From a virus, in the UHGV virus genome UHGV-0144137: a stretch of 32,828 nucleotides of DNA; one strand, 5' to 3'. Every line of letters begins with the position of its first letter. Position 1 is the first letter of the stretch. The position numbers and the translations under genes are program-made. This document shows positions 1-32,828 of the stretch, one piece after another. The notes below the pieces were generated by a model, which was given only the letters and a program-made list of their open reading frames with translations, was not told the DNA's origin and did not search any database.

Positions 1-53
1 TATCCAAAGCGGCATTGATGGCGATCGGGCAGGGCGTCAGGAGGGCTGCATGA
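1..53 (+). CDS. 3' end of an upstream nin-region ORF (NinB-like), partial
   Basis: Open frame from the window edge reading ...[16 protein letters not shown] to a TGA at 51-53 that overlaps the ninC ATG at 50 (ATGA coupling). Identity inferred from lambda nin gene order only. Confidence 0.3.
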   Translation, partial: SKAALMAIGQGVRRAA

Positions 54-895
54 TAAATGTCGTTAGTTTCTCCGGTGGCAGGACGTCAGCATATTTGCTC
101 TGGCTAATGGAGCAAAAGCGACAGGCAGGTGAAGACGTGCATTACGTTTTCATGGATACAGGGGCAGAGCACCCTAAAACATATGAGTTCATCCGAAATA
201 TCGTCAGTAACTGGAAAATAGACTTACATTGCCTTCGTGTAATACCTAATCCAGAAATGGGGAAGGCCAGTAGTTATGAAGAGATAGGTGTCAATGATAT
301 TGGTCCAGATCTTATACCGTGGAAAAGGATGTTAAATAAATACGGACATCCATATATCGGCGGTGCGTTCTGTACCGACAGAATGAAGTCTGTTCCATTC
401 ACCAAATATTGTCAGGAAAAGTTTGGGAAAGGAAATTACATCACATGGCTTGGCATTCGCACAGATGAACCAAACAGGCTTAAAAGGGCTAATGGTTTTC
501 GGTACCTGGCTGATATAAGCGATTTTGAAAAACAGGATGTGCTTGATTGGTGGAGTGAGCAGAAGTTTGATCTTGGCATACAGGAGCATCTTGGTAATTG
601 TGTTTTCTGCATAAAAAAAAGTATGCAAAAGGTGGCGCTGGCAGCCATGGATGAGCCAGAACTTGCAGATGCATTTATCAACATCCTTGATACAGAAATA
701 AAAACAGGAAAGGAACCGGTTATGTATCGAGGGAATAATACACTTAAATCACTGATTGCCTTGTTTAGTGATATATCAAGAGATGAGTTAGCCTCAAGAA
801 TGACATCAATGCGACAGTATGATTCAGGTTCGTGTTCTGAATCATGTGAAGCATTTTCATGTCAGCTTGGATTTAATTTTGAGGATGCGACATGA
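50..895 (+). CDS. ninC: NinC-like protein, PAPS reductase / PP-loop ATP pyrophosphatase fold
   Basis: 281 aa ORF; N-terminal PP-loop-like motif [12 protein letters not shown]; position immediately upstream of ninF as in lambda. Confidence 0.75.
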
Positions 896-3534: not shown

Positions 3535-3609
3535 GGGTCAGTCGTATAAAGGTCATTACGGAAGGCTGTTAACCTTCTTATCGTGGTTCGAGTCCACGCT
3601 GTCCCGCCA
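3535..3609 (+). tRNA. tRNA-like gene, anticodon GTT (Asn) by manual folding
   Basis: Manual cloverleaf: acceptor GGGTCAG/CTGTCCC (one T-T mismatch at 4-69), D-loop with GG, anticodon stem GAAGG/CCTTC with loop CTGTTAA, T-arm CGTGG-TTCGAGT-CCACG, discriminator G, encoded CCA. The mismatch leaves pseudogene status open. Confidence 0.55.
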
Positions 3610-3614
3610 AATAT

Positions 3615-3690
3615 GCTGGTTTAGCTCCAATGGTAGAGCAGTCGCCTTGTAAGCGAATGGGTAGCGGTTCAAGTCCGTTAACCAGCACCA
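3615..3690 (+). tRNA. tRNA gene, anticodon TGT (Thr) by manual folding
   Basis: 76 nt cloverleaf: fully paired acceptor GCTGGTT/AACCAGC, D-arm TAGCTC...GGTAGAGC, anticodon loop CTTGTAA, T-arm AGCGG-TTCAAGT-CCGTT, discriminator A, encoded CCA. Confidence 0.7.
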
Positions 3691-21006: not shown

Positions 21007-21087
21007 TTTGTTTTAGTTTTATGCTTGCTTGTATGTGTGTACAGTGTATATAATGCAAGCATACATCACAACAAAGGTGCTTGCATT

Positions 21088-22056
21088 ATGACTGAAAAGA
21101 ACAATGGCGAAGGGAAAGCTAAGGGCGGGATCGCTCGCGCAAAGTCGCTGACTAAAGAGCAGCGTTCTGAAATAGCAAAGAAAGCAGCTGCTGCAAGATG
21201 GAAAAGTAAGATTCTCAGGGCAACTCATCGTGGTAACTTTTTAGATGATTTTGGCATTGATGCTGAATGTTATGTACTGGATGACGAGTCGAAAACTGTC
21301 GTTGTTACGAAAACTGGATTATCTCAGTTGCTAGGGATTGGTGAACATGCCAGGGATTTAGATCAACTGCTTGGCGCTCAGTATATGAGCAAATACCGAG
21401 ATCTAGAATTGCAGCGAAAAATGGAAAATCCCTATAAATTTCAACTTACTTCGAAGTCTAAAACCGTTCATCAAGCGTTAGGTTATGACATTACAGCAAT
21501 TGTTGATATTGGTAGGGCACTAATAGAAGCTAAAGATAATGACGATCTACCACAATCACGGTTAAAGGCAGCCGCCGCAGCACAGAGACTTATTAATGCC
21601 TCCGCTAAGGCGGGAATTAAGGGGGTTGCGTATGCGCTTGCTGGTTATCGTCCAGAAGTTCAGGCTGTCATTGACGAGTTCAAAGCGTTTGTTCGTGAAG
21701 AGGCTCGTCAATATGAAAAGGAATTTCCAGATGAGCTATACGAGGAGTGGTATCGACTGTACGGCCTGAATAGGCCAGAGAAAGGACGGCCTATTCGTTT
21801 TGGGCAGCTAACCAACATGCAGATATACACCCCGCTAGCAAAGAGTAAAGGTAAAATCCTTGAACAGATTCGAGCCAGCCGAGACGAGAACGGAAAACAA
21901 TCTGATAAGTTGCATCTGTTCCTTTCTGAAATTGGTGTCAAGGCTTTGCGTCAGCATATCGGTAAGCTTCTTGGTGTCGCAGCGATGAGTGAGACAAGAG
22001 AAGAATACGAAAAAGGAATAGAAAAGGTTTTCGGAAGAATGAAACCAGAAATCTAA
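21088..22056 (+). CDS. hypothetical protein with basic N-terminus (moron)
   Basis: Track ORF 21025..22056 trimmed to ATG 21088 (MTEKNNGEGKAKGGIARAKSLTKEQRSEIAKKAAAARW...); preceded by TTGCTT-N18-TATAAT promoter-like sequence; followed by a bidirectional terminator. Confidence 0.6.
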   Translation: MTEKNNGEGKAKGGIARAKSLTKEQRSEIAKKAAAARWKSKILRATHRGNFLDDFGIDAECYVLDDESKTVVVTKTGLSQLLGIGEHARDLDQLLGAQYMSKYRDLELQRKMENPYKFQLTSKSKTVHQALGYDITAIVDIGRALIEAKDNDDLPQSRLKAAAAAQRLINASAKAGIKGVAYALAGYRPEVQAVIDEFKAFVREEARQYEKEFPDELYEEWYRLYGLNRPEKGRPIRFGQLTNMQIYTPLAKSKGKILEQIRASRDENGKQSDKLHLFLSEIGVKALRQHIGKLLGVAAMSETREEYEKGIEKVFGRMKPEI

Positions 22057-25945: not shown

Positions 25946-26472
25946 AACCAGCATTTAAATACAATATATATCATAAAACTTACATAATAGTTATAACTAT
26001 AATTCTTGCTTAAGAATTTATAAAAACTGAGACACACAAAGCTTTGCACTTGATTGCAAGGCGTTGTGCTCTTCGATAGTGGTTAAGGTGGATCACTCCA
26101 CCTTTTCATCAAGCCAGTCCGCCCACCACTGCATCATTTCTCTGCGCTTATCGAGATACTGAGCATGGTTGTAAATTCAGCTAACCCAATGCGTTGACAA
26201 AAAATTAGCGCAAGAGGACAAAAAATCACCTTGCGCTAATGCTCTGTTGTAGGTCACTAATGCCATCTAAGTAGTTGATTCATAGTGACTGCATATGTTG
26301 TGTTTTGTCGCATTTTGCAGTCTGTTATTTAACCGTAAATACTTATAAACATATGATTTTTAAATAATTTATATGATTTTGTCATCCTTTAGGTGAAAAA
26401 GAACGCTGGAGTACCAGCGGTGATGTTCACGAAATTAAAAATCTTCCTGTAATCCTCTATAGCAAACAGGCG

Positions 26473-26901
26473 TTGATGACGTCGGCAAAGGACGGCCTGT
26501 TGAAGAAGAATGTATCAGGGGTGAAGAGTTCCAAGCATGGCTGCTTTGTTTATGGCGATACCTCGTTTTCTTTCAGTGAGGTAATGGAAGCTATCTTCAT
26601 CAGTGGGCTGTTCTTCTATGCGCCAATAGACGCCGCCAGTAGTCTTGATGAACTGAAAGTGAGTTTGGCTGGGCTGGAAGAAGAACTGGCCGAAGTACCA
26701 AAAGTGGATTCGAATGGCAATGAAACAGATAAAGAACCTACTATAGTCGTAGCCGAAGGTGCTTTTGATTCGGTCGCTGCTCACATGGAAACAGAAGCTG
26801 AGGAGTGGCAATCTATTAAGAACCTGTGCCAACGAGAAGGTGAGCTGCCCATACGTATTGGTGGTATTAAAATGGCTGAGCCACCAGAGTTTCATTTTTA
26901 G
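26473..26901 (+). CDS. hypothetical acidic protein (first gene of two-gene accessory operon)
   Basis: 142 aa ORF 52 nt upstream of the 393 aa ORF, same strand; acidic C-terminal half; no recognisable motif; true start uncertain. Confidence 0.45.
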   Translation: MMTSAKDGLLKKNVSGVKSSKHGCFVYGDTSFSFSEVMEAIFISGLFFYAPIDAASSLDELKVSLAGLEEELAEVPKVDSNGNETDKEPTIVVAEGAFDSVAAHMETEAEEWQSIKNLCQREGELPIRIGGIKMAEPPEFHF

Positions 26902-26961
26902 TTTAAAAGCAACAATCTACCACTTAATGATTACGAAGCTATAAGTTGAAGGATGATTCAC

Positions 26962-28134
26962 ATGCCACACAAGAAAGTAGCATTACAGCTCATTGAAGAA
27001 ACACTTAAAGAACTCGAGTCACCAAAAGGTTCTTTGTTATCGGCTATACAAAAACTACAGCGGACTTCGGATATCATCAATGATGATGATAAAAAGATAT
27101 GGTGTGCTATTCAATTAGGTGATACTAAATATACAAAGCCAATAACTGAATTGCTTAAGTTTGTTATTGAGGCTGAAAATACAAAAAATAAATCTTTCCA
27201 AGAAAATTTAGACAAACGAATACAAGAACTTGCCAAATTAGGAGTTAAGGCTAATATACATTATTCAGATGAAGAACTCACATTAAAAAATATTGAAAGT
27301 GGTGGTGGATATAATAACATTGGGTTTATTGAAGAGAAATATGCCGATCTTGTAAGAAAAAAACAAGGCAATGACGGAACGTATTATAAGAATAGTTTAA
27401 ATCAACATATCAATTATGTTAGAAAAAAAGCACATGAATTAGCATCGCAAATATATAATCAACTAAAATTTTCAGGTACTGTCAGCAACTGTTTTGATGT
27501 ATTGAAAAATGCTGTTGATGATAAATTATTAGATCTAAATCCAGTGATCGCAGAACAACTAATGTTGGCATTTAAAGCTATTTCTTCAGATAAAGAAGAA
27601 GAATGGTCTCAAGCTTTAACTACATGTCGTAGGCTTCTAGAAGGGTTGGCTGATGAACTTTATCCGGCATCGAAGGAAAAATTTAATGGTCGGGCCGTTG
27701 GGCAAGGTCAATACGTAAACCGCCTTTGGGCATTTATGGATGGGGCTATTCAGTCTGATAGTAATAAAGACCTTGCCAAAGCACATATAGATTTTCTCGG
27801 ATCATGGTTAGATAAAGTTAATAAGTTAACAAATAAAGGTGTTCATGCCGAGTTAGATCGGATTGAAGCTGTAAAGTCAGTATTTCACACGTATTTAGTA
27901 GTGGCGGATTTGCTTGAGTATATGTCAAATACCAAAACCTCTGTATCTAAGCCTGATATCAATAAAGCTACTTTAGATGAACTGGAAGCATTGTTAAATA
28001 TAAATAGAACAATCGCTAAAGAAATTGTTAAAGCACGAGTTCGTGAAGGCAAGCTTGATCTGGATATTTTAAAAAACATAAAAGGTATAGGTGCTAAGAC
28101 GCTTAGTAATATACAAGAAGTGTTTGTTATGTAA
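26962..28134 (+). CDS. hypothetical alpha-helical protein with C-terminal ComEA-type helix-hairpin-helix DNA-binding domain
   Basis: Track ORF 26953..28134, start set to ATG 26962 (GAAGGA Shine-Dalgarno 9 nt upstream); C-terminus INKATLDELEALLNINRTIAKEIVKARVREGKLDLDILKNIKGIGAKTLSNI fits the ComEA HhH pattern; AT-rich codon usage. Confidence 0.6.
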   Translation: MPHKKVALQLIEETLKELESPKGSLLSAIQKLQRTSDIINDDDKKIWCAIQLGDTKYTKPITELLKFVIEAENTKNKSFQENLDKRIQELAKLGVKANIHYSDEELTLKNIESGGGYNNIGFIEEKYADLVRKKQGNDGTYYKNSLNQHINYVRKKAHELASQIYNQLKFSGTVSNCFDVLKNAVDDKLLDLNPVIAEQLMLAFKAISSDKEEEWSQALTTCRRLLEGLADELYPASKEKFNGRAVGQGQYVNRLWAFMDGAIQSDSNKDLAKAHIDFLGSWLDKVNKLTNKGVHAELDRIEAVKSVFHTYLVVADLLEYMSNTKTSVSKPDINKATLDELEALLNINRTIAKEIVKARVREGKLDLDILKNIKGIGAKTLSNIQEVFVM

Positions 28135-28170
28135 TTTATTTAGTATTTAATTGATATAATATCATGAAAT

Positions 28171-28206
28171 AAAATCGGGAGTTCATACGTAGCAACTCCC
28201 GATTTT
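28171..28206. terminator. Bidirectional terminator-like hairpin between convergent genes
   Basis: Perfect 10 bp stem ATCGGGAGTT / AACTCCCGAT flanked by AAAA and TTTT. Confidence 0.55.
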
Positions 28207-28225
28207 ACGATGATATGTTGTATTA

Positions 28226-28592
28226 TCAATCCATCAAACCACGTGAGGTCTTACTTGCAGTCTGACGAAAATCATAACGTTCCACAACATCACCCTTAAA
28301 CCAGATATCCAGTGATTTAATGTGTGCTGTGCTGCTATTGGTCAATAGAGCAAGGCCCGGTATGTAGTTAGATAGTTGGCTTTCTCCCGTCATACTTGAG
28401 TAGTTCCACATCTCCTGTCCATCATTCGTAGCGCTCTCCAAAGGCAGCAAGAATTTCTTGTTGGGTTGTTTTTCCCTTGACGATTTTAACTTTAACCGTC
28501 TGATGATTTTCATCAGTTAGGGATTTATTACCATGAACGGTACAGCCACCAAGTGGTAATATTATAAAAATAGCAAGTAATAATTTTTTCAT
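28226..28592 (-). pseudogene. Lipoprotein gene apparently split by a frameshift
   Basis: Two overlapping minus-strand ORFs (28422..28634 and 28226..28513) in different frames; the upstream one carries signal peptide and lipobox MKKLLLAIFIILPLGGC (ATG at 28592), the downstream one lacks its own signal; overlap region contains a homopolymer run. Confidence 0.4.
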
Positions 28593-28623
28593 TTTTGTTC
28601 CAGAAATAGATGAAAGGTGAGAC

Positions 28624-29112
28624 TCAGAAAACATACTTTTTAAATACCAGCATCCATCGCTTGCAAAGTTCGTGATTTGAGGTGCTTAAATTTTTCAGGG
28701 GAACATTAACTTTCCACATGGGATTTTTAATATCATCGGTTAAAATATTTAGGCCAGACCGTTTATTCGCTGAAAGTTGTTCTCTACAGTTAGCAATAGC
28801 CGCATTATTCATACCTCGTAATGTTCCATTGCCATAAAACTTACCCCCCTCTGAAAGCGTATAATTTATTTCTCGAATTTGATCAAAAGTATATGTGCTG
28901 TCTTTATCTTTATTGAAAATACGGACAGTATGTTTTTGAGTATCAATAACAATACCTGTCTGTTGGCATTCATACGAAAGAATGTCGCCGTCCAGAACTT
29001 CCGTAAAGCTGTTGTAGTGCTTTTTCTTTTGTATATCTACTGCTGTCATGATGATGATGAAGAGCACCACTAAAAATACGATACCTACTGCTTCCAATCT
29101 TACTTCCTCCAT
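28624..29112 (-). CDS. hypothetical membrane-anchored protein
   Basis: 162 aa; N-terminal TM helix (AVGIVFLVVLFIIIMTAV) then soluble domain; AT-rich; divergent from the lipoprotein operon across the GATC-rich region. Confidence 0.55.
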   Translation of the reverse strand: MEEVRLEAVGIVFLVVLFIIIMTAVDIQKKKHYNSFTEVLDGDILSYECQQTGIVIDTQKHTVRIFNKDKDSTYTFDQIREINYTLSEGGKFYGNGTLRGMNNAAIANCREQLSANKRSGLNILTDDIKNPMWKVNVPLKNLSTSNHELCKRWMLVFKKYVF

Positions 29113-29224
29113 GTAAATGAGTTAAAGAGACTGAACCTGCTCACAGAGCTTTGCTACGTTTTATACGTCCTACAGCACCAAGCTCATGGCGTCGGTCTCG
29201 GCGTTGCAAGGCTATCAGAACTTG

Positions 29225-29375
29225 AAATCATGATCGATATAAAAGATCGATAATTAATTATTGATAGGCTTTAACGATTAAAACAATGATATTGATCGAT
29301 TATTAATTGTTTTTATCGATCGAATATTTATTTATGATAGCTATTGGCTATCATAAGGTTGTTTTTGATCGTTTT
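29225..29375. promoter_or_regulatory. Divergent intergenic control region with clustered GATCGAT repeats and a 10 bp inverted repeat
   Basis: GATC at 29232, 29245, 29294, 29318 and 29367; the 7-mer GATCGAT occurs three times direct and once inverted; imperfect 22 bp direct repeat GATCGATwATTAATTrTT (29245-29266 and 29294-29315); inverted repeat TTATGATAGC-N5-GCTATCATAA at 29332-29356. Confidence 0.5.
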
Positions 29376-29529
29376 AAACGATATGACGAGACGCTAAAAG
29401 AATTGAATCCTATCAATTGGTTAAGCGGTGGTTTTGCCATGTGATATCAGCCGGATCCCGCAACAACTCTAGCCCTGACCAGATTTGGTCAAAAATTTAG
29501 GCACTTTGATTATCAGGATGGATAAGCAG

Positions 29530-30060
29530 ATGAAGAAGATTTTACTCGTTGCTGGCGCAGCTCTGGCACTGGCGGGATGTGGTGAGAAAGGTGATTTTGA
29601 GAAGGCGATCAATGCCAAGATAGGGCAGGACAAATATTGCTTCTCGCTGGATAACAATAACACCAGCTTCCCCATCCGTCTTGCCAAGCCACGACTTGAT
29701 TCGACTGGTACAGGGACGAATTCAGTGATCCTCGATGGATTTGTAGAGCAGGGAATGATGGTCTTTGAGCAGGGCTATGATTCGAACGTATTAGGGATAA
29801 CAGAGGAAGGCAAAAAAGCCAAAGTCTGGAGCACAACAGATGGTGCCTGTGTTGGTCGTCGTGCTGTTGACGGGATTAAGGAATGGACTGAGCCGGGAAA
29901 CGGTAATCAGAAAGTAGTTCGCGTGACTTATACGTGGAAGCTGGTTGACGTTCCGGGCTGGATTGACAAAAAAGCATTCGCCAGCGTTAAAGGAATGAAT
30001 GAACCTGCTGATGGTGCCATGAATCTCTTTAAGACCAGCAATGGCTGGAAAGCCAATTAA
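29530..30060 (+). CDS. Predicted lipoprotein
   Basis: Track ORF 29485..30060 trimmed to ATG 29530 (MKKILLVAGAALALAGCGEKG...): signal peptide with lipobox LAGC. Confidence 0.7.
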   Translation: MKKILLVAGAALALAGCGEKGDFEKAINAKIGQDKYCFSLDNNNTSFPIRLAKPRLDSTGTGTNSVILDGFVEQGMMVFEQGYDSNVLGITEEGKKAKVWSTTDGACVGRRAVDGIKEWTEPGNGNQKVVRVTYTWKLVDVPGWIDKKAFASVKGMNEPADGAMNLFKTSNGWKAN

Positions 30061-30070
30061 GGAAACCAAT

Positions 30071-30346
30071 ATGGAAAACAATACCATCAAATGCCCGTTC
30101 TGTTTCAAAGAGAGCCAGCGTGGGGTTCACGTTTGCACAGGTTGCTTAGCGACTGTGTTATATGGCACTTATCCCGGCTGGTATGCTGCTGTTGTTTTGT
30201 TGTTGACTTTTGGTTTATCGACGTTGATCGGTATGTCAACAGGTATGGCAGGAGCTACTATCAGTCTACCAATAATTGCGGTTGTTGGGTTTATAGCTGG
30301 TAAGGCGATATTCTCTGATAATGTTGTGTTTAGGCGAAAGATATAA
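30071..30346 (+). CDS. small membrane protein with N-terminal zinc-ribbon (CPFC...CTGC)
   Basis: Track ORF 30041..30346 trimmed to ATG 30071 (AAGGAAACC Shine-Dalgarno); CxxC-x15-CxxC then two hydrophobic helices; 10 nt downstream of the lipoprotein gene. Confidence 0.6.
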   Translation: MENNTIKCPFCFKESQRGVHVCTGCLATVLYGTYPGWYAAVVLLLTFGLSTLIGMSTGMAGATISLPIIAVVGFIAGKAIFSDNVVFRRKI

Positions 30347-30405
30347 AAAACGAAAAGAATTATATGATGGGCGACCTTTCATAGTTCGCCCATATATAAA
30401 TATAA

Positions 30406-31242
30406 CTAAAGACCATTTCTCGCTGATTTTATATCCAATAAGTTTATTTTATCTATCTTATCTTTGTGGATAACGATAGTAAGCTTTGCCGGAAATTTAA
30501 ACCTCATTTCACTTATTCTAAAAGTCCACAACATTATTTTAAGTAAATCCTCATCGCTAATATTTTTATGTTCCTTTATTCTAGTGATTCCAGATCCAAA
30601 GATAGGAACAGAGACACTTTTTTGAGCATATATACGATTAACTTTGTCCCAAAAATTTATTAAAAATGCTAGATAATCCGGCATTGTAAGAAAAGCTCTA
30701 TTTTTGTCGTCAAATTTTGAAAACGCAGTTAATAGATAATCATTATTAACGAAGATAGTTCCTAGCGAATATTTTTGTGTTTTACCCACTTTTCTTTTAT
30801 GGTTGACCTCAAGCAGTTCATCTTCTTCAAACTGATGATTTGAAATACGATGGTCCAAATCAGATACGGATCCCGCTAAATAGTTATCAATATATAATCC
30901 ATTAAGTGAATTATGAGAAATGATAACATCATCAACTTGCGTGTCAAAATATTCATTAAAAGCAATGACCTTGAATCCATCTTGTCTGAATAAATCGCCT
31001 GCTTTTACAGTAACAATGCTGCCCTCAACATCTAAATTAATTTCCGAAAGATTATTTGATTTAAACCATATGCCGAAATACAGTAAGAATAAAATAATTA
31101 AAAATATAATACCAAGTGTTAGTTTGTTTTCTGTTGGAATGTCTACAAAAATCAAAAAAAGTGAAAATATGGTACTAATAGTTGATGTGTAGTCTGAAAA
31201 TTTTTTAAGTATACGCTTATCGAAAAAATTAACTTTCGCCAT
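30406..31242 (-). CDS. Two-TM membrane protein with C-terminal Macro-like domain (ThsA type II-like effector candidate)
   Basis: 278 aa; two N-terminal hydrophobic helices (TISTIFSLFLIFV, LGIIFLIILFLLYFGIWF); downstream motifs DDVIISHNSLNG and SVPIFGSGITR resemble Macro-domain ADP-ribose-binding motifs (by eye); about 30% GC. Confidence 0.55.
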   Translation of the reverse strand: MAKVNFFDKRILKKFSDYTSTISTIFSLFLIFVDIPTENKLTLGIIFLIILFLLYFGIWFKSNNLSEINLDVEGSIVTVKAGDLFRQDGFKVIAFNEYFDTQVDDVIISHNSLNGLYIDNYLAGSVSDLDHRISNHQFEEDELLEVNHKRKVGKTQKYSLGTIFVNNDYLLTAFSKFDDKNRAFLTMPDYLAFLINFWDKVNRIYAQKSVSVPIFGSGITRIKEHKNISDEDLLKIMLWTFRISEMRFKFPAKLTIVIHKDKIDKINLLDIKSARNGL

Positions 31243-31378
31243 TTTTGTACCAACCTTGTTAATTATATGTAATTCAAGTGTGTTGATAGTAGTTTCTTAT
31301 AAATGATGTTTACACTATCTGATATATAAGGTATTTTCAACATGTTGATACTAATGTTGACTGCTTCATGGGGACTAT

Positions 31379-31888
31379 ATGAGTTATCGTAATAAGACAT
31401 ATGTGGCTTTTGCAAGTGAAGATATAAAGTTTTATCGTCTTATGGAGGCATGGAAAGCAAATGAAAAAATAGACTTTAACTTTTTTGATGCTCATGATCT
31501 CTTTATTTCAAGGGATACAAGTAAACCTGAAACCATAAAGCGAAACCTCCGCGAAAGGATGAAAAATGCTAAACAAGTAGTACTGTTGGGAAGCGGTAAT
31601 ACTAAGAGAAAAGGTAGCGATGGAGTATCGTTTCTTGCCCATGAAATAGATCTTATCGTAGAATTTAATCTTCCTGTTGTAATAGCTAATTTAGACGGAG
31701 ATAGAACAGTCGATAAGAACTTCATTCCTAAACCACTTTTAGATTCAGAACATTATACAGTATCTGTCTCTTTCCAACCTAAAATTATTAAATATGCATT
31801 AGATAATTACTGTGTTAACTATTACTCAAGTTCAAATAGTGGTAGTTATCTATACCCTACATCTGTTTATACTAAGCTAGGTCTGTAA
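31379..31888 (+). CDS. TIR-like (DUF1863 / ThsB-like) protein candidate
   Basis: 169 aa; N-terminus KTYVAFASEDIKFYRLMEAW and later VVLLGSGNT...AHEIDL fit the pattern of TIR-like ThsB proteins as I recall it; divergent from the TM-Macro gene. Confidence 0.5.
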   Translation: MSYRNKTYVAFASEDIKFYRLMEAWKANEKIDFNFFDAHDLFISRDTSKPETIKRNLRERMKNAKQVVLLGSGNTKRKGSDGVSFLAHEIDLIVEFNLPVVIANLDGDRTVDKNFIPKPLLDSEHYTVSVSFQPKIIKYALDNYCVNYYSSSNSGSYLYPTSVYTKLGL

Positions 31889-31914
31889 TATTTCAACGTA
31901 TACTAAACAATATG

Positions 31915-31941
31915 TGGAATGAGCACGGAACACTCATTCCA
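31915..31941. terminator. Hairpin between convergent genes
   Basis: 9 bp stem TGGAATGAG / CTCATTCCA with 9 nt loop, in an AT-rich intergenic region. Confidence 0.4.
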
Positions 31942-32019
31942 TAACAAACATACTATTTAGATGTGCTAATACAATTAATTTTATGCATCGAAGATATTAA
32001 GCACTTATGATTTATTGCT

Positions 32020-32828
32020 TTATCTTCTCCTGTATGCTATTTCAGCCAACTCTCTTGCTATTTCCTTAACGCTATATAAAGAAGTTTGCAGTGCCATTTT
32101 ATCCGCCAAATAATGGCTGTATTTAGATACCTCTTGAGCATTGATATTATGCCAGATTGGCAATATAATCTTATTATCATCATACACTGCACGATTAATT
32201 AAACTATCTAATTCGTATTGTGTCCATTTCTTGTTTAGAAAGTTATGAGAAAGTATGACTATGCCATAATTTGCTTTTCTTAGGCCTAAATCAATATTTC
32301 TCCTTAAGCTATCGCCGACTTCAAGTGTCTGTTCATCATACCAAATAATTACACCAAGTCTATTTAACTCGTCTACCAGTGGTCTGACAAAAGTATCTTT
32401 ATCCTCTTTTGCATGGGATATGAAAAAATCATAGTGCGTATTATTGTTATCTTGCATGACGTCATTCTGTATTTCATATGGTTGATGAAAAATTGCTTGT
32501 AATTTTGCCCAGTCTATTTCTGCTAAAGATTTATTATTGCGATAAAATAGTTTTTGGGAAGGGAAATCAATATTCGAAATGTAAATAATAAATATATTAT
32601 TTATTTTCTTTGCCTCAACCTCCTTCCACTCCCATCTATAATCGTGGATATAAGAAATTGATGCTTGAAAATAATCATTGGAAGTTAAATTACCTGCGCG
32701 AAATGTCGCATTACTAATATTAAACGCGAGATATGAGTTACCTTCTCCGTTGAAAATAATATTATATCCCTCTTTCAATAGATATGAACGAATCTCTTTG
32801 GTTTTTAGGTGCTGTTTCCATGCGAGGA
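32020..32828 (-). CDS. TIR-domain protein (N-terminus beyond window edge)
   Basis: Canonical TIR motifs YDFFISHAKEDKDTFVRPLVDEL...WYDE...IVILSHNFLNKKWTQYEL in the C-terminal half; the reading frame stays open upstream of the TTG at 32778 to the end of the window, so the gene is probably truncated by the window. Confidence 0.75.
   Translation of the reverse strand, partial: LAWKQHLKTKEIRSYLLKEGYNIIFNGEGNSYLAFNISNATFRAGNLTSNDYFQASISYIHDYRWEWKEVEAKKINNIFIIYISNIDFPSQKLFYRNNKSLAEIDWAKLQAIFHQPYEIQNDVMQDNNNTHYDFFISHAKEDKDTFVRPLVDELNRLGVIIWYDEQTLEVGDSLRRNIDLGLRKANYGIVILSHNFLNKKWTQYELDSLINRAVYDDNKIILPIWHNINAQEVSKYSHYLADKMALQTSLYSVKEIARELAEIAYRRR

Follow-up and report, generated by a model that had tools for sequence, protein, structure and literature searches.

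A type II Thoeris locus beside tcpC on a mobilizable island of Escherichia coli

Introduction

Thoeris anti-phage systems share a common logic, in which a TIR-domain sensor (ThsB) makes a signal out of nicotinamide adenine dinucleotide (NAD+), and this signal acts on the effector ThsA. In type I Thoeris the effector is a SIR2-SLOG protein activated by 3' cyclic ADP-ribose (3'cADPR), whereas type II systems rely on a ThsA that joins a transmembrane (TM) anchor to a Macro domain. The subject of this work is a type II locus made of thsA, thsB2 and tcpC, which lies at the end of a 32,828-nucleotide stretch of DNA (UHGV virus genome UHGV-0144137; the window hereafter means this whole stretch). It is the same locus as the type II Thoeris of Escherichia coli CFT073 and ATCC 25922 (EcThsA, EcThsB2 and EcThsB1), with equal gene order and strands and 100% identical DNA over positions 30300-32828.

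The type II Thoeris of Bacillus amyloliquefaciens Y2 (Doron 2018; Sabonis et al.) shares with this locus the TM-Macro ThsA and a ThsB with a Tyr-Glu active site, and the Bacillus ThsB is predicted to resemble EcThsB2 (Shi et al. 2024, PMC11204291). The Y2 locus encodes only one ThsB, and its signal has been identified as His-ADPR (ADPR, ADP-ribose), which is bound by the Macro domain (Sabonis et al., 10.1101/2024.01.03.573942); abortive infection has been put forward as a general feature of type II systems. Against this, the E. coli locus shows an extra TIR gene, a divergent orientation and a growth arrest without collapse of the culture.

The proteins of the CFT073 locus have been studied by structural and biochemical methods (Shi et al. 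2024 Sci Adv, PMC11204291). The EcThsA Macro domain binds ADPR with a dissociation constant (Kd) of 4.6 uM, has a roughly 30-fold higher affinity for imidazole adenine dinucleotide (IAD), and does not bind 2'cADPR or 3'cADPR (PMC11204291). Ligand leads to the aggregation of u-shaped Macro dimers via a dimer-dimer interface, and six mutations in this interface abolish the effect (PMC11204291). The TIR domain of EcThsB1 (AAN80857.1, 307 amino acids) converts NAD+ to ADPR and carries out base exchange with imidazole or histamine, not with histidine; earlier NADase work on this protein is cited in the same paper (PMC11204291). EcThsB2 (169 amino acids) has a Tyr8-Glu89 active site that is found only in ThsBs partnering TM-Macro effectors (PMC11204291).

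The ATCC 25922 locus, to which the window is 100% identical, has been assayed with phages (Englert, Dmytrenko and Beisel 2026 bioRxiv, 10.64898/2026.01.22.701046). A plasmid with thsA and thsB2 lowered the plaquing of T4, Bas3, Bas15 and Bas43 on MG1655 by 100- to 1000-fold, and in the native strain ATCC 25922 the two genes lowered T4 plaquing by 10^5-fold. Defence was lost when thsA or thsB2 was present alone, when the membrane helices were truncated, or when the tryptophan of the ThsB2 WxxxE motif was mutated. Infected cultures reached a plateau and did not collapse, and the NAD+ level did not fall during defence. The whole thsA-thsB2-thsB1 locus could not be cloned, and laboratory strains ceased to grow when thsB1 was induced, also with mutated WxxxE motifs (10.64898/2026.01.22.701046).

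The locus and its three proteins

The region is almost certainly an anti-phage locus of the type II Thoeris class, situated on a tRNA-Ser mobilizable island of phylogroup-B2-type E. coli and built around the divergent thsA-thsB2 pair. The system as such is known from earlier work, which includes crystal structures and plaque assays on the identical sequence, and the sole new element of the present analysis is comparative, namely the evidence that tcpC is separable. The features of the region are the following:

30406-31242, minus strand: thsA, 278 amino acids, N-terminal two-helix membrane anchor and C-terminal Macro domain (residues ~62-278)
31243-31378, 136 bp: thsA-thsB2 intergenic region between the divergent start codons, read directly from the sequence
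31379-31888, plus strand: thsB2, 169 amino acids, TIR-like sensor and signal synthase of ThsB subfamily 9
31915-31941, minus strand: terminator-like hairpin (12-bp stem, T-rich tail) in the interval where thsB2 and tcpC converge with their 3' ends
32020-32828, minus strand: 3' part of tcpC (= thsB1), residues 40-307 of the 307-residue TIR protein TcpC

An earlier note on this DNA had drawn three AT-rich open reading frames (ORFs) here, and all of them were recovered at the same coordinates and on the same strands. Their G+C content is 30-35%, as against 45-51% in most of the prophage part of the window, and long ORFs are improbable by chance in DNA so rich in A and T. The note had read the three products as a protein with two TM segments and Macro-like motifs, a TIR-like protein of 169 amino acids and a canonical TIR protein leaving the window, and it had proposed a hidden Markov model search, in which all three match ThsA, ThsB or TIR profiles far beyond chance. 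The type II architecture that it suggested, a TM-Macro effector with TIR proteins, is borne out by profiles, solved structures and the literature alike.

ThsA matches the PADLOC ThsA model PDLC00413 from end to end (4.2e-128, positions 1-278 of 278) and the Pfam family ThsA_Macro (PF20016) over residues 77-259 (3.3e-64). Its residues 61-278 are 100% identical to the solved EcThsA Macro domain (PDB 8V6Q/8V6R), and the Bacillus Macro-domain structure 8R66 is matched at 2.9e-52. The ligand-cleft residues D83, N114, S217, T220 and K262, to which mutagenesis has assigned a role (Shi et al. 2024, PMC11204291), are all retained, together with the structural residues D100, R150 and K154. In the N-terminal part hydropathy exceeds 1.6 in the 19-residue segments that start at residues 35-45, while a second hydrophobic stretch at about residues 20-34 is more amphipathic and contains no 19-residue segment that reaches 1.6. 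ThsA therefore has both of the features by which a type II effector is recognised, N-terminal membrane helices ahead of a C-terminal ThsA-type Macro domain and an intact Macro ligand cleft. It differs from type I effectors in having neither SIR2 nor SLOG, in a Macro domain that binds neither 2'cADPR nor 3'cADPR and in leaving NAD+ undepleted. In RefSeq the gene is labelled 'macro domain-containing protein'.

ThsB2 is 100% identical over its whole length to PDB 8V6T, and it matches the PADLOC ThsB model PDLC00440 at 6.8e-91 (positions 1-169 of 169) and the Pfam family ThsB_TIR (PF08937) at 2.5e-11; its RefSeq label is 'TIR domain-containing protein'. Y8 and E89 of the active site, the WxxxE motif at 25-29 and the tail residues Y159 and Y164 are retained, so that the protein carries the catalytic Glu and Tyr pair of the ThsBs that partner TM-Macro effectors (subfamily 9). 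Its gene stands directly beside thsA, with its start 136 bp away, as expected of a type II system. The interval between the two starts (31243-31378) presumably holds both the thsA and the thsB2 promoters, and a plasmid carrying the thsA-thsB2 region under its native promoters gave defence (Englert et al. 2026, 10.64898/2026.01.22.701046). One weak promoter-like match lies there on the plus strand (31309-31337, 9/12); the promoter scan of 30000-32828 as a whole stayed at chance level (17 sites against 15.5 expected), and no promoter is named. The terminator scan gave three sites in the region against 1.0 expected, and the 31915-31941 hairpin is a consensus match only.

The third gene is cut by the end of the window. 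Its frame has a stop at 32020 and is open to the last base, with no upstream stop, and the match to the PADLOC ThsB model PDLC00417 (2.7e-177) covers positions 52-303 of 303; a match beginning at model position 52 suggested that the 5' end of tcpC lies outside the window. In E. coli Nissle 1917 tcpC has 307 codons, and the 268 residues encoded in the window (40-307), together with the stop, are identical to its product, WP_000562556.1. The DNA is likewise 100% identical to that of CFT073, which makes this gene the named CFT073/Nissle product. A TTG-started ORF of 252 amino acids was rejected as a gene model, being an effect of the window edge: the frame stays open and the real start lies 115 bases past the edge. 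Most of a hydrophobic helix, at about residues 20-42, belongs to the 39 N-terminal residues beyond the window. The part of TcpC within the window matches Pfam TIR_2 at 3.6e-18 and retains the WTQYE motif with the catalytic Glu244, the combination of TIR domain and catalytic glutamate expected of a ThsB, and the full protein matches PDLC00417 at 2.6e-210 and the PADLOC defence-candidate model PDC-S66 at 1.2e-66. For the TcpC TIR domain itself there is no solved structure, and AbTir, TcpB/BtpA and PdTir are its nearest solved relatives (1e-46 to 1e-32).

In RefSeq the third gene is labelled 'tcpC: NAD(+) hydrolase TcpC', and among the Tcp-family bacterial TIR 'virulence factors' (TcpC, BtpA/TcpB, AbTir, PdTir) it is tcpC itself. 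The name 'TcpC' is absent from the text of both Thoeris papers on the locus (Shi et al. 2024; Englert et al. 2026), where the protein is called ThsB1, and among the papers that mention TcpC together with Thoeris or ThsB we found none that places tcpC in a Thoeris locus (PMC8635717 and PMC9806590 were outside this comparison). The equivalence of TcpC and ThsB1 is implicit in the literature rather than unknown.

The locus in E. coli genomes

A megablast search of window positions 30300-32828 (2529 bases) against 5426 complete E. coli genomes found at least 80% of this segment in 187 of them, always on the chromosome. Full-length matches are 99.9-100% identical and include the strains CFT073, Nissle 1917, 536, NC101, NGF1 and ATCC 25922; identity is 100% over the 2529 bases in CFT073, Nissle 1917, 536 and ATCC 25922. 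The three genes show no difference from the CFT073/ATCC 25922 locus, and only the left context differs, where the island meets the arm of a P22-like prophage at 26391. All of the residues singled out by Shi et al. and Englert et al. are retained in the window proteins. The published requirement for both ThsA and ThsB in phage resistance, established with the identical ATCC 25922 sequence, would by this identity apply to the window as well.

Positions 26391-32828 are 99.9% identical to an island of Nissle 1917 that is bounded by tRNA-Ser and a tyrosine integrase, and since mobQ, traD and type 4 pilus genes are aboard, the Nissle island is an integrative mobilizable element. The alternating strands, the two TIR proteins and the truncated third gene that the earlier note described are all real, and what it took for a possible variant is the published configuration of CFT073 and ATCC 25922. 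Its further suggestion of a larger system does not hold: in Nissle 1917 the MobQ relaxase gene follows directly beyond tcpC, and the genes beyond thsA on the other side belong to the island backbone. The latter were tried as members of such a system by searching the proteins of 26473-30346 (ComEA-like, DUF4755, a lipoprotein, a small Zn-ribbon membrane protein and three smaller ORFs) against the 80 ThsA loci described below, where only the Enterobacter island variant matched.

ThsA loci across species

When one genome per species was scanned, 140 stretches with a ThsA relative were found, and the best 80 (L003-L082; 53-90% identical) were kept. They come from Proteobacteria, Cyanobacteria, Bacteroidota and other phyla. 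An iterated ThsB2 profile run over all ORFs placed a ThsB2-family gene directly beside thsA in 74 of these 80 loci from other species. A tblastn figure of 25 out of 80 for the same neighbour was set aside as a limit of sensitivity. In five of the six exceptions thsA is near a contig end on the possible ThsB side, and the sixth (L062) has 5 kb of upstream sequence and only ~240 bp downstream. The ThsB2-family gene is co-oriented with thsA in all loci except that of Enterobacter, and the divergent arrangement of thsA and thsB2 is therefore a peculiarity of the enterobacterial island. The N-terminal domain of TcpC was found in none of the 80 ThsA loci.

Two side observations concern the same set. 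Three of the loci (L035, L074 and L080) have two ThsB2-family genes each. The E. coli ThsA is 57-72% identical to its relatives in Cyanobacteria, Bacteroidota, Verrucomicrobiota and Campylobacterota, which is unusual conservation for a defence protein, and the ThsB2-family neighbours of those ThsA proteins are only ~30-39% identical.

tcpC as separable cargo

The two closest relatives of the locus are found in E. coli MSB1_4I (L002; 81% DNA identity) and Enterobacter intestinihominis (L003; ThsA 90% identical). Both keep the island backbone and the thsA-thsB2 pair, and the slot between mobQ and thsB2, where tcpC would stand, holds a gene for a 158-residue protein instead. In this protein no TIR domain and no PADLOC match were found, and its sole Pfam match is a weak one to YunG (E 0.007). 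The slot gene lies at:

L002, 7727-8203, minus strand: 158-residue slot protein
L003, 3737-4213, plus strand: 158-residue slot protein

The N-terminal domain of TcpC forms a very small family, with 13 clusters among 5.8 billion proteins, and a search of plasmids for it gave no match. Full-length homologues of TcpC that have neither thsA nor thsB2 near them, with ~50% identity for the N-terminal domain and 60-74% for the TIR domain, lie at:

L088, 6001-6873: full-length TcpC homologue
L089, 1508-2380: full-length TcpC homologue
L087, 6001-6765: full-length TcpC homologue
L084, 6001-6873: full-length TcpC homologue

One such homologue is that of Pantoea sp. S62, in an unrelated neighbourhood with toxin, immunity and nuclease genes, and another is in a degraded island copy of E. 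coli CP116919.1. In L088 and L089 the order is mobQ, the tcpC-like gene and the gene for the small membrane protein, the one next to thsA in the window, and both thsA and thsB2 are lacking. These arrangements, taken together with those of L002 and L003, mean that the slot between mobQ and the small gene has at least three states: tcpC with thsB2-thsA, the 158-residue gene with thsB2-thsA, and a tcpC homologue alone.

Within one cargo slot of the island family, the assortment of tcpC is independent of that of thsA-thsB2. An association with ThsA that extends beyond one clone, which would be expected of a ThsB, is not seen for TcpC. Independent assortment fits both the sufficiency of thsA and thsB2 for defence and the differing behaviour of thsB1 in the assays, and we think it more probable that TcpC is a TIR module acquired on its own than that it is a sensor on which ThsA depends.

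Proposed mechanism

In the published type II scheme, which is the best supported account of this locus, phage infection would render ThsB2 active, and the enzyme would build from NAD+ a conjugate of ADP-ribose with an imidazole-type base. The conjugate would occupy the cleft of the ThsA Macro domain, whereupon ThsA dimers would form higher-order oligomers along the membrane by means of their two-helix anchors, and oligomerised ThsA would bring about a growth arrest without NAD+ depletion, so that phage propagation stops. Several parts of this scheme have been demonstrated for identical proteins, namely the structures, the binding of ADPR and IAD with the ensuing aggregation, the fact that thsA and thsB2 are necessary and sufficient, the need for the helices and for the WxxxE tryptophan, and the steady NAD+ level during defence. 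We infer the identity of the E. coli ThsB2 signal, the phage trigger and the cellular effect of membrane assembly. Production of His-ADPR upon infection has been shown for the Bacillus system and may occur in E. coli, and TcpC may have a candidate role in activating ThsA-dependent defence.

Certain published results weigh against this picture of an active two-gene system. EcThsB2 was inactive as an NADase in vitro (PMC11204291). Deletion of the native locus in ATCC 25922 altered the sensitivity to none of 73 phages, defence being obtained only from a multicopy plasmid, and a growth arrest without membrane depolarisation fits poorly with the structure-based idea of a pore or lesion (10.64898/2026.01.22.701046). 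As neither depolarisation nor cell death is seen, a simple membrane lesion is disfavoured.

Alternative explanations

The null result of the native deletion is what would be expected if the locus were a silent or decaying island passenger that is inactive in its native host (thsAB2B1 deletion, plaquing changed for 0 of 73 phages; 10.64898/2026.01.22.701046). We regard this as improbable. The three frames are intact with all named functional residues, the sequence is conserved at 99.9% or more over 187 genomes, and across phyla ThsA is kept at 57-72% identity with its ThsB2-family neighbour. The cloned genes moreover act from their own promoters, and the native host resists most of the tested phages for other reasons, which would mask any effect of the deletion (10.64898/2026.01.22.701046).

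The role of TcpC is a more delicate question. Our own suggestion, advanced tentatively and with slightly less than even confidence, is that TcpC is a self-contained, membrane-anchored TIR NADase module that moves on its own by way of the slot downstream of mobQ in a family of enterobacterial mobilizable islands, rather than an indispensable Thoeris sensor or a toxin aimed chiefly at the host. A true three-gene system is also possible, if on the whole doubtful: TcpC/ThsB1 would then be a second sensor, one for other phages, and its separate ADPR-type signal would act on the ThsA that also serves ThsB2; this has been suggested for Bacillus loci that carry several ThsBs. This is how Shi et al. 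(PMC11204291) treat the protein, as EcThsB1, and the full TcpC indeed falls within the PADLOC ThsB model at 2.6e-210; its TIR domain yields ADPR and IAD, of which IAD binds ThsA about 30-fold better, and the three adjoining genes are inherited together, with identity of 99.9% or above, in 187 genomes. That co-inheritance is clonal within E. coli and hence carries little information, whereas the N-terminal domain of TcpC is missing from all 80 ThsA loci of other species and TcpC homologues occur without thsA and thsB2 in three contexts. Furthermore, thsA and thsB2 suffice for defence, the toxicity of thsB1 in laboratory strains is not relieved by mutation of WxxxE (10.64898/2026.01.22.701046), and the TcpC TIR domain cannot use histidine (PMC11204291). 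The reading of tcpC as a separate module is weakened in turn by three considerations: the products of its TIR domain, ADPR and IAD, both bind ThsA (PMC11204291), Thoeris loci with several ThsB genes are common, and independent assortment would also be expected of interchangeable sensors. Since its products bind ThsA, TcpC may be an optional extra sensor, which is compatible with the data.

It is unlikely that TcpC is chiefly a host-directed virulence factor, which would strike MyD88/Toll-like receptor (TLR) signalling and whose place beside the Thoeris pair would be unrelated to phages. Such a role has its published basis in virulence studies, drawn on here through their citation in other papers (Cirl 2008, Yadav 2010, Snyder 2013, Fang 2021), and it agrees with the presence of the locus on a tRNA-Ser island of uropathogenic strains and with the assortment of tcpC independently of thsA-thsB2. 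The same locus is nevertheless present in a probiotic strain, Nissle 1917, as well as in NGF1 and NC101, which are isolates from mice, the Pantoea homologue stands beside toxin, immunity and nuclease genes, TcpC matches the defence-candidate model PDC-S66 (1.2e-66), and the entry of bacterial TIR proteins into host cells is unclear (Manik et al. preprint). Virulence and defence roles are also mutually compatible.

Island and prophage surroundings

On the thsA side of the locus, a lipoprotein gene (29485-30060, plus strand) overlaps a gene for a 101-residue protein (30041-30346, plus strand) with a CxxC zinc-ribbon-like N-terminus and a hydrophobic C-terminus. This pair adjoins thsA in the enterobacterial island variants, where the small protein is 66-83% identical, and is present in none of the 79 ThsA loci of other genera. 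Further away, 26953-28134 (plus strand) encodes a 393-residue protein that RefSeq calls 'ComEA family DNA-binding protein'; it has a C-terminal helix-hairpin-helix (HHH_3, 1.7e-09), and its N-terminal region of ~330 residues gives only a weak match to AbiTii (E 0.012). The gene may be further defence or DNA-handling cargo of the island. Beside the DUF4755 gene, two overlapping frames of 95 and 70 amino acids at 28226-28634 (minus strand) represent a pseudogene, which according to RefSeq is frameshifted in Nissle 1917.

From position 1 to about 26401 the window consists of the late arm of a P22-like prophage, with nin, Q, two tRNAs, lysis, Rha, portal, capsid, DNA-transfer and tailspike genes; the tRNAs, tRNA-Asn(GTT) and tRNA-Thr(TGT), lie at 3535-3690 (plus strand) between the Q antiterminator and the lysis genes. 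At the junction with the island (~26391-26401), phage homology stops in the 3' end of an integrase gene (phage vB_EcoP-611R6) and homology to the island sets in halfway through a hypothetical gene of Nissle, with an overlap of ~11 bases between them (AGGTGAAAAAG). The junction at 26391 was found in none of the 5426 complete E. coli genomes, and it reflects either illegitimate recombination specific to the strain or a chimeric assembly. It has no bearing on the Thoeris genes. The idea of an anti-Thoeris (Tad2-like) gene in the prophage, taken from the Kapi1 paper, was rejected after ten of the larger prophage ORFs, one at 21025-22056 and the other nine within the first 6.8 kb, had been scanned with Pfam and gave nothing but ordinary genes (nin, Q, lysis, Rha, P63C-domain).

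Concluding remarks

As a discovery the locus has little value, being present in PADLOC, in RefSeq annotation and in the PDB, with two papers dedicated to it. It does serve as a positive control, in that a type II Thoeris system was recognised from raw sequence by a reader without tools. Research on TcpC as a virulence factor and research on it as an immune protein may be proceeding in parallel, without cross-reference. The independent assortment of tcpC provides a simple genetic reason to ask whether TcpC alone acts against phages, and it would help to explain why thsB1 and thsB2 differ in the assays. If TcpC is a self-contained module, the 'three-gene' Thoeris of E. coli would be two systems that became adjacent by an accident of insertion in the CFT073 lineage.

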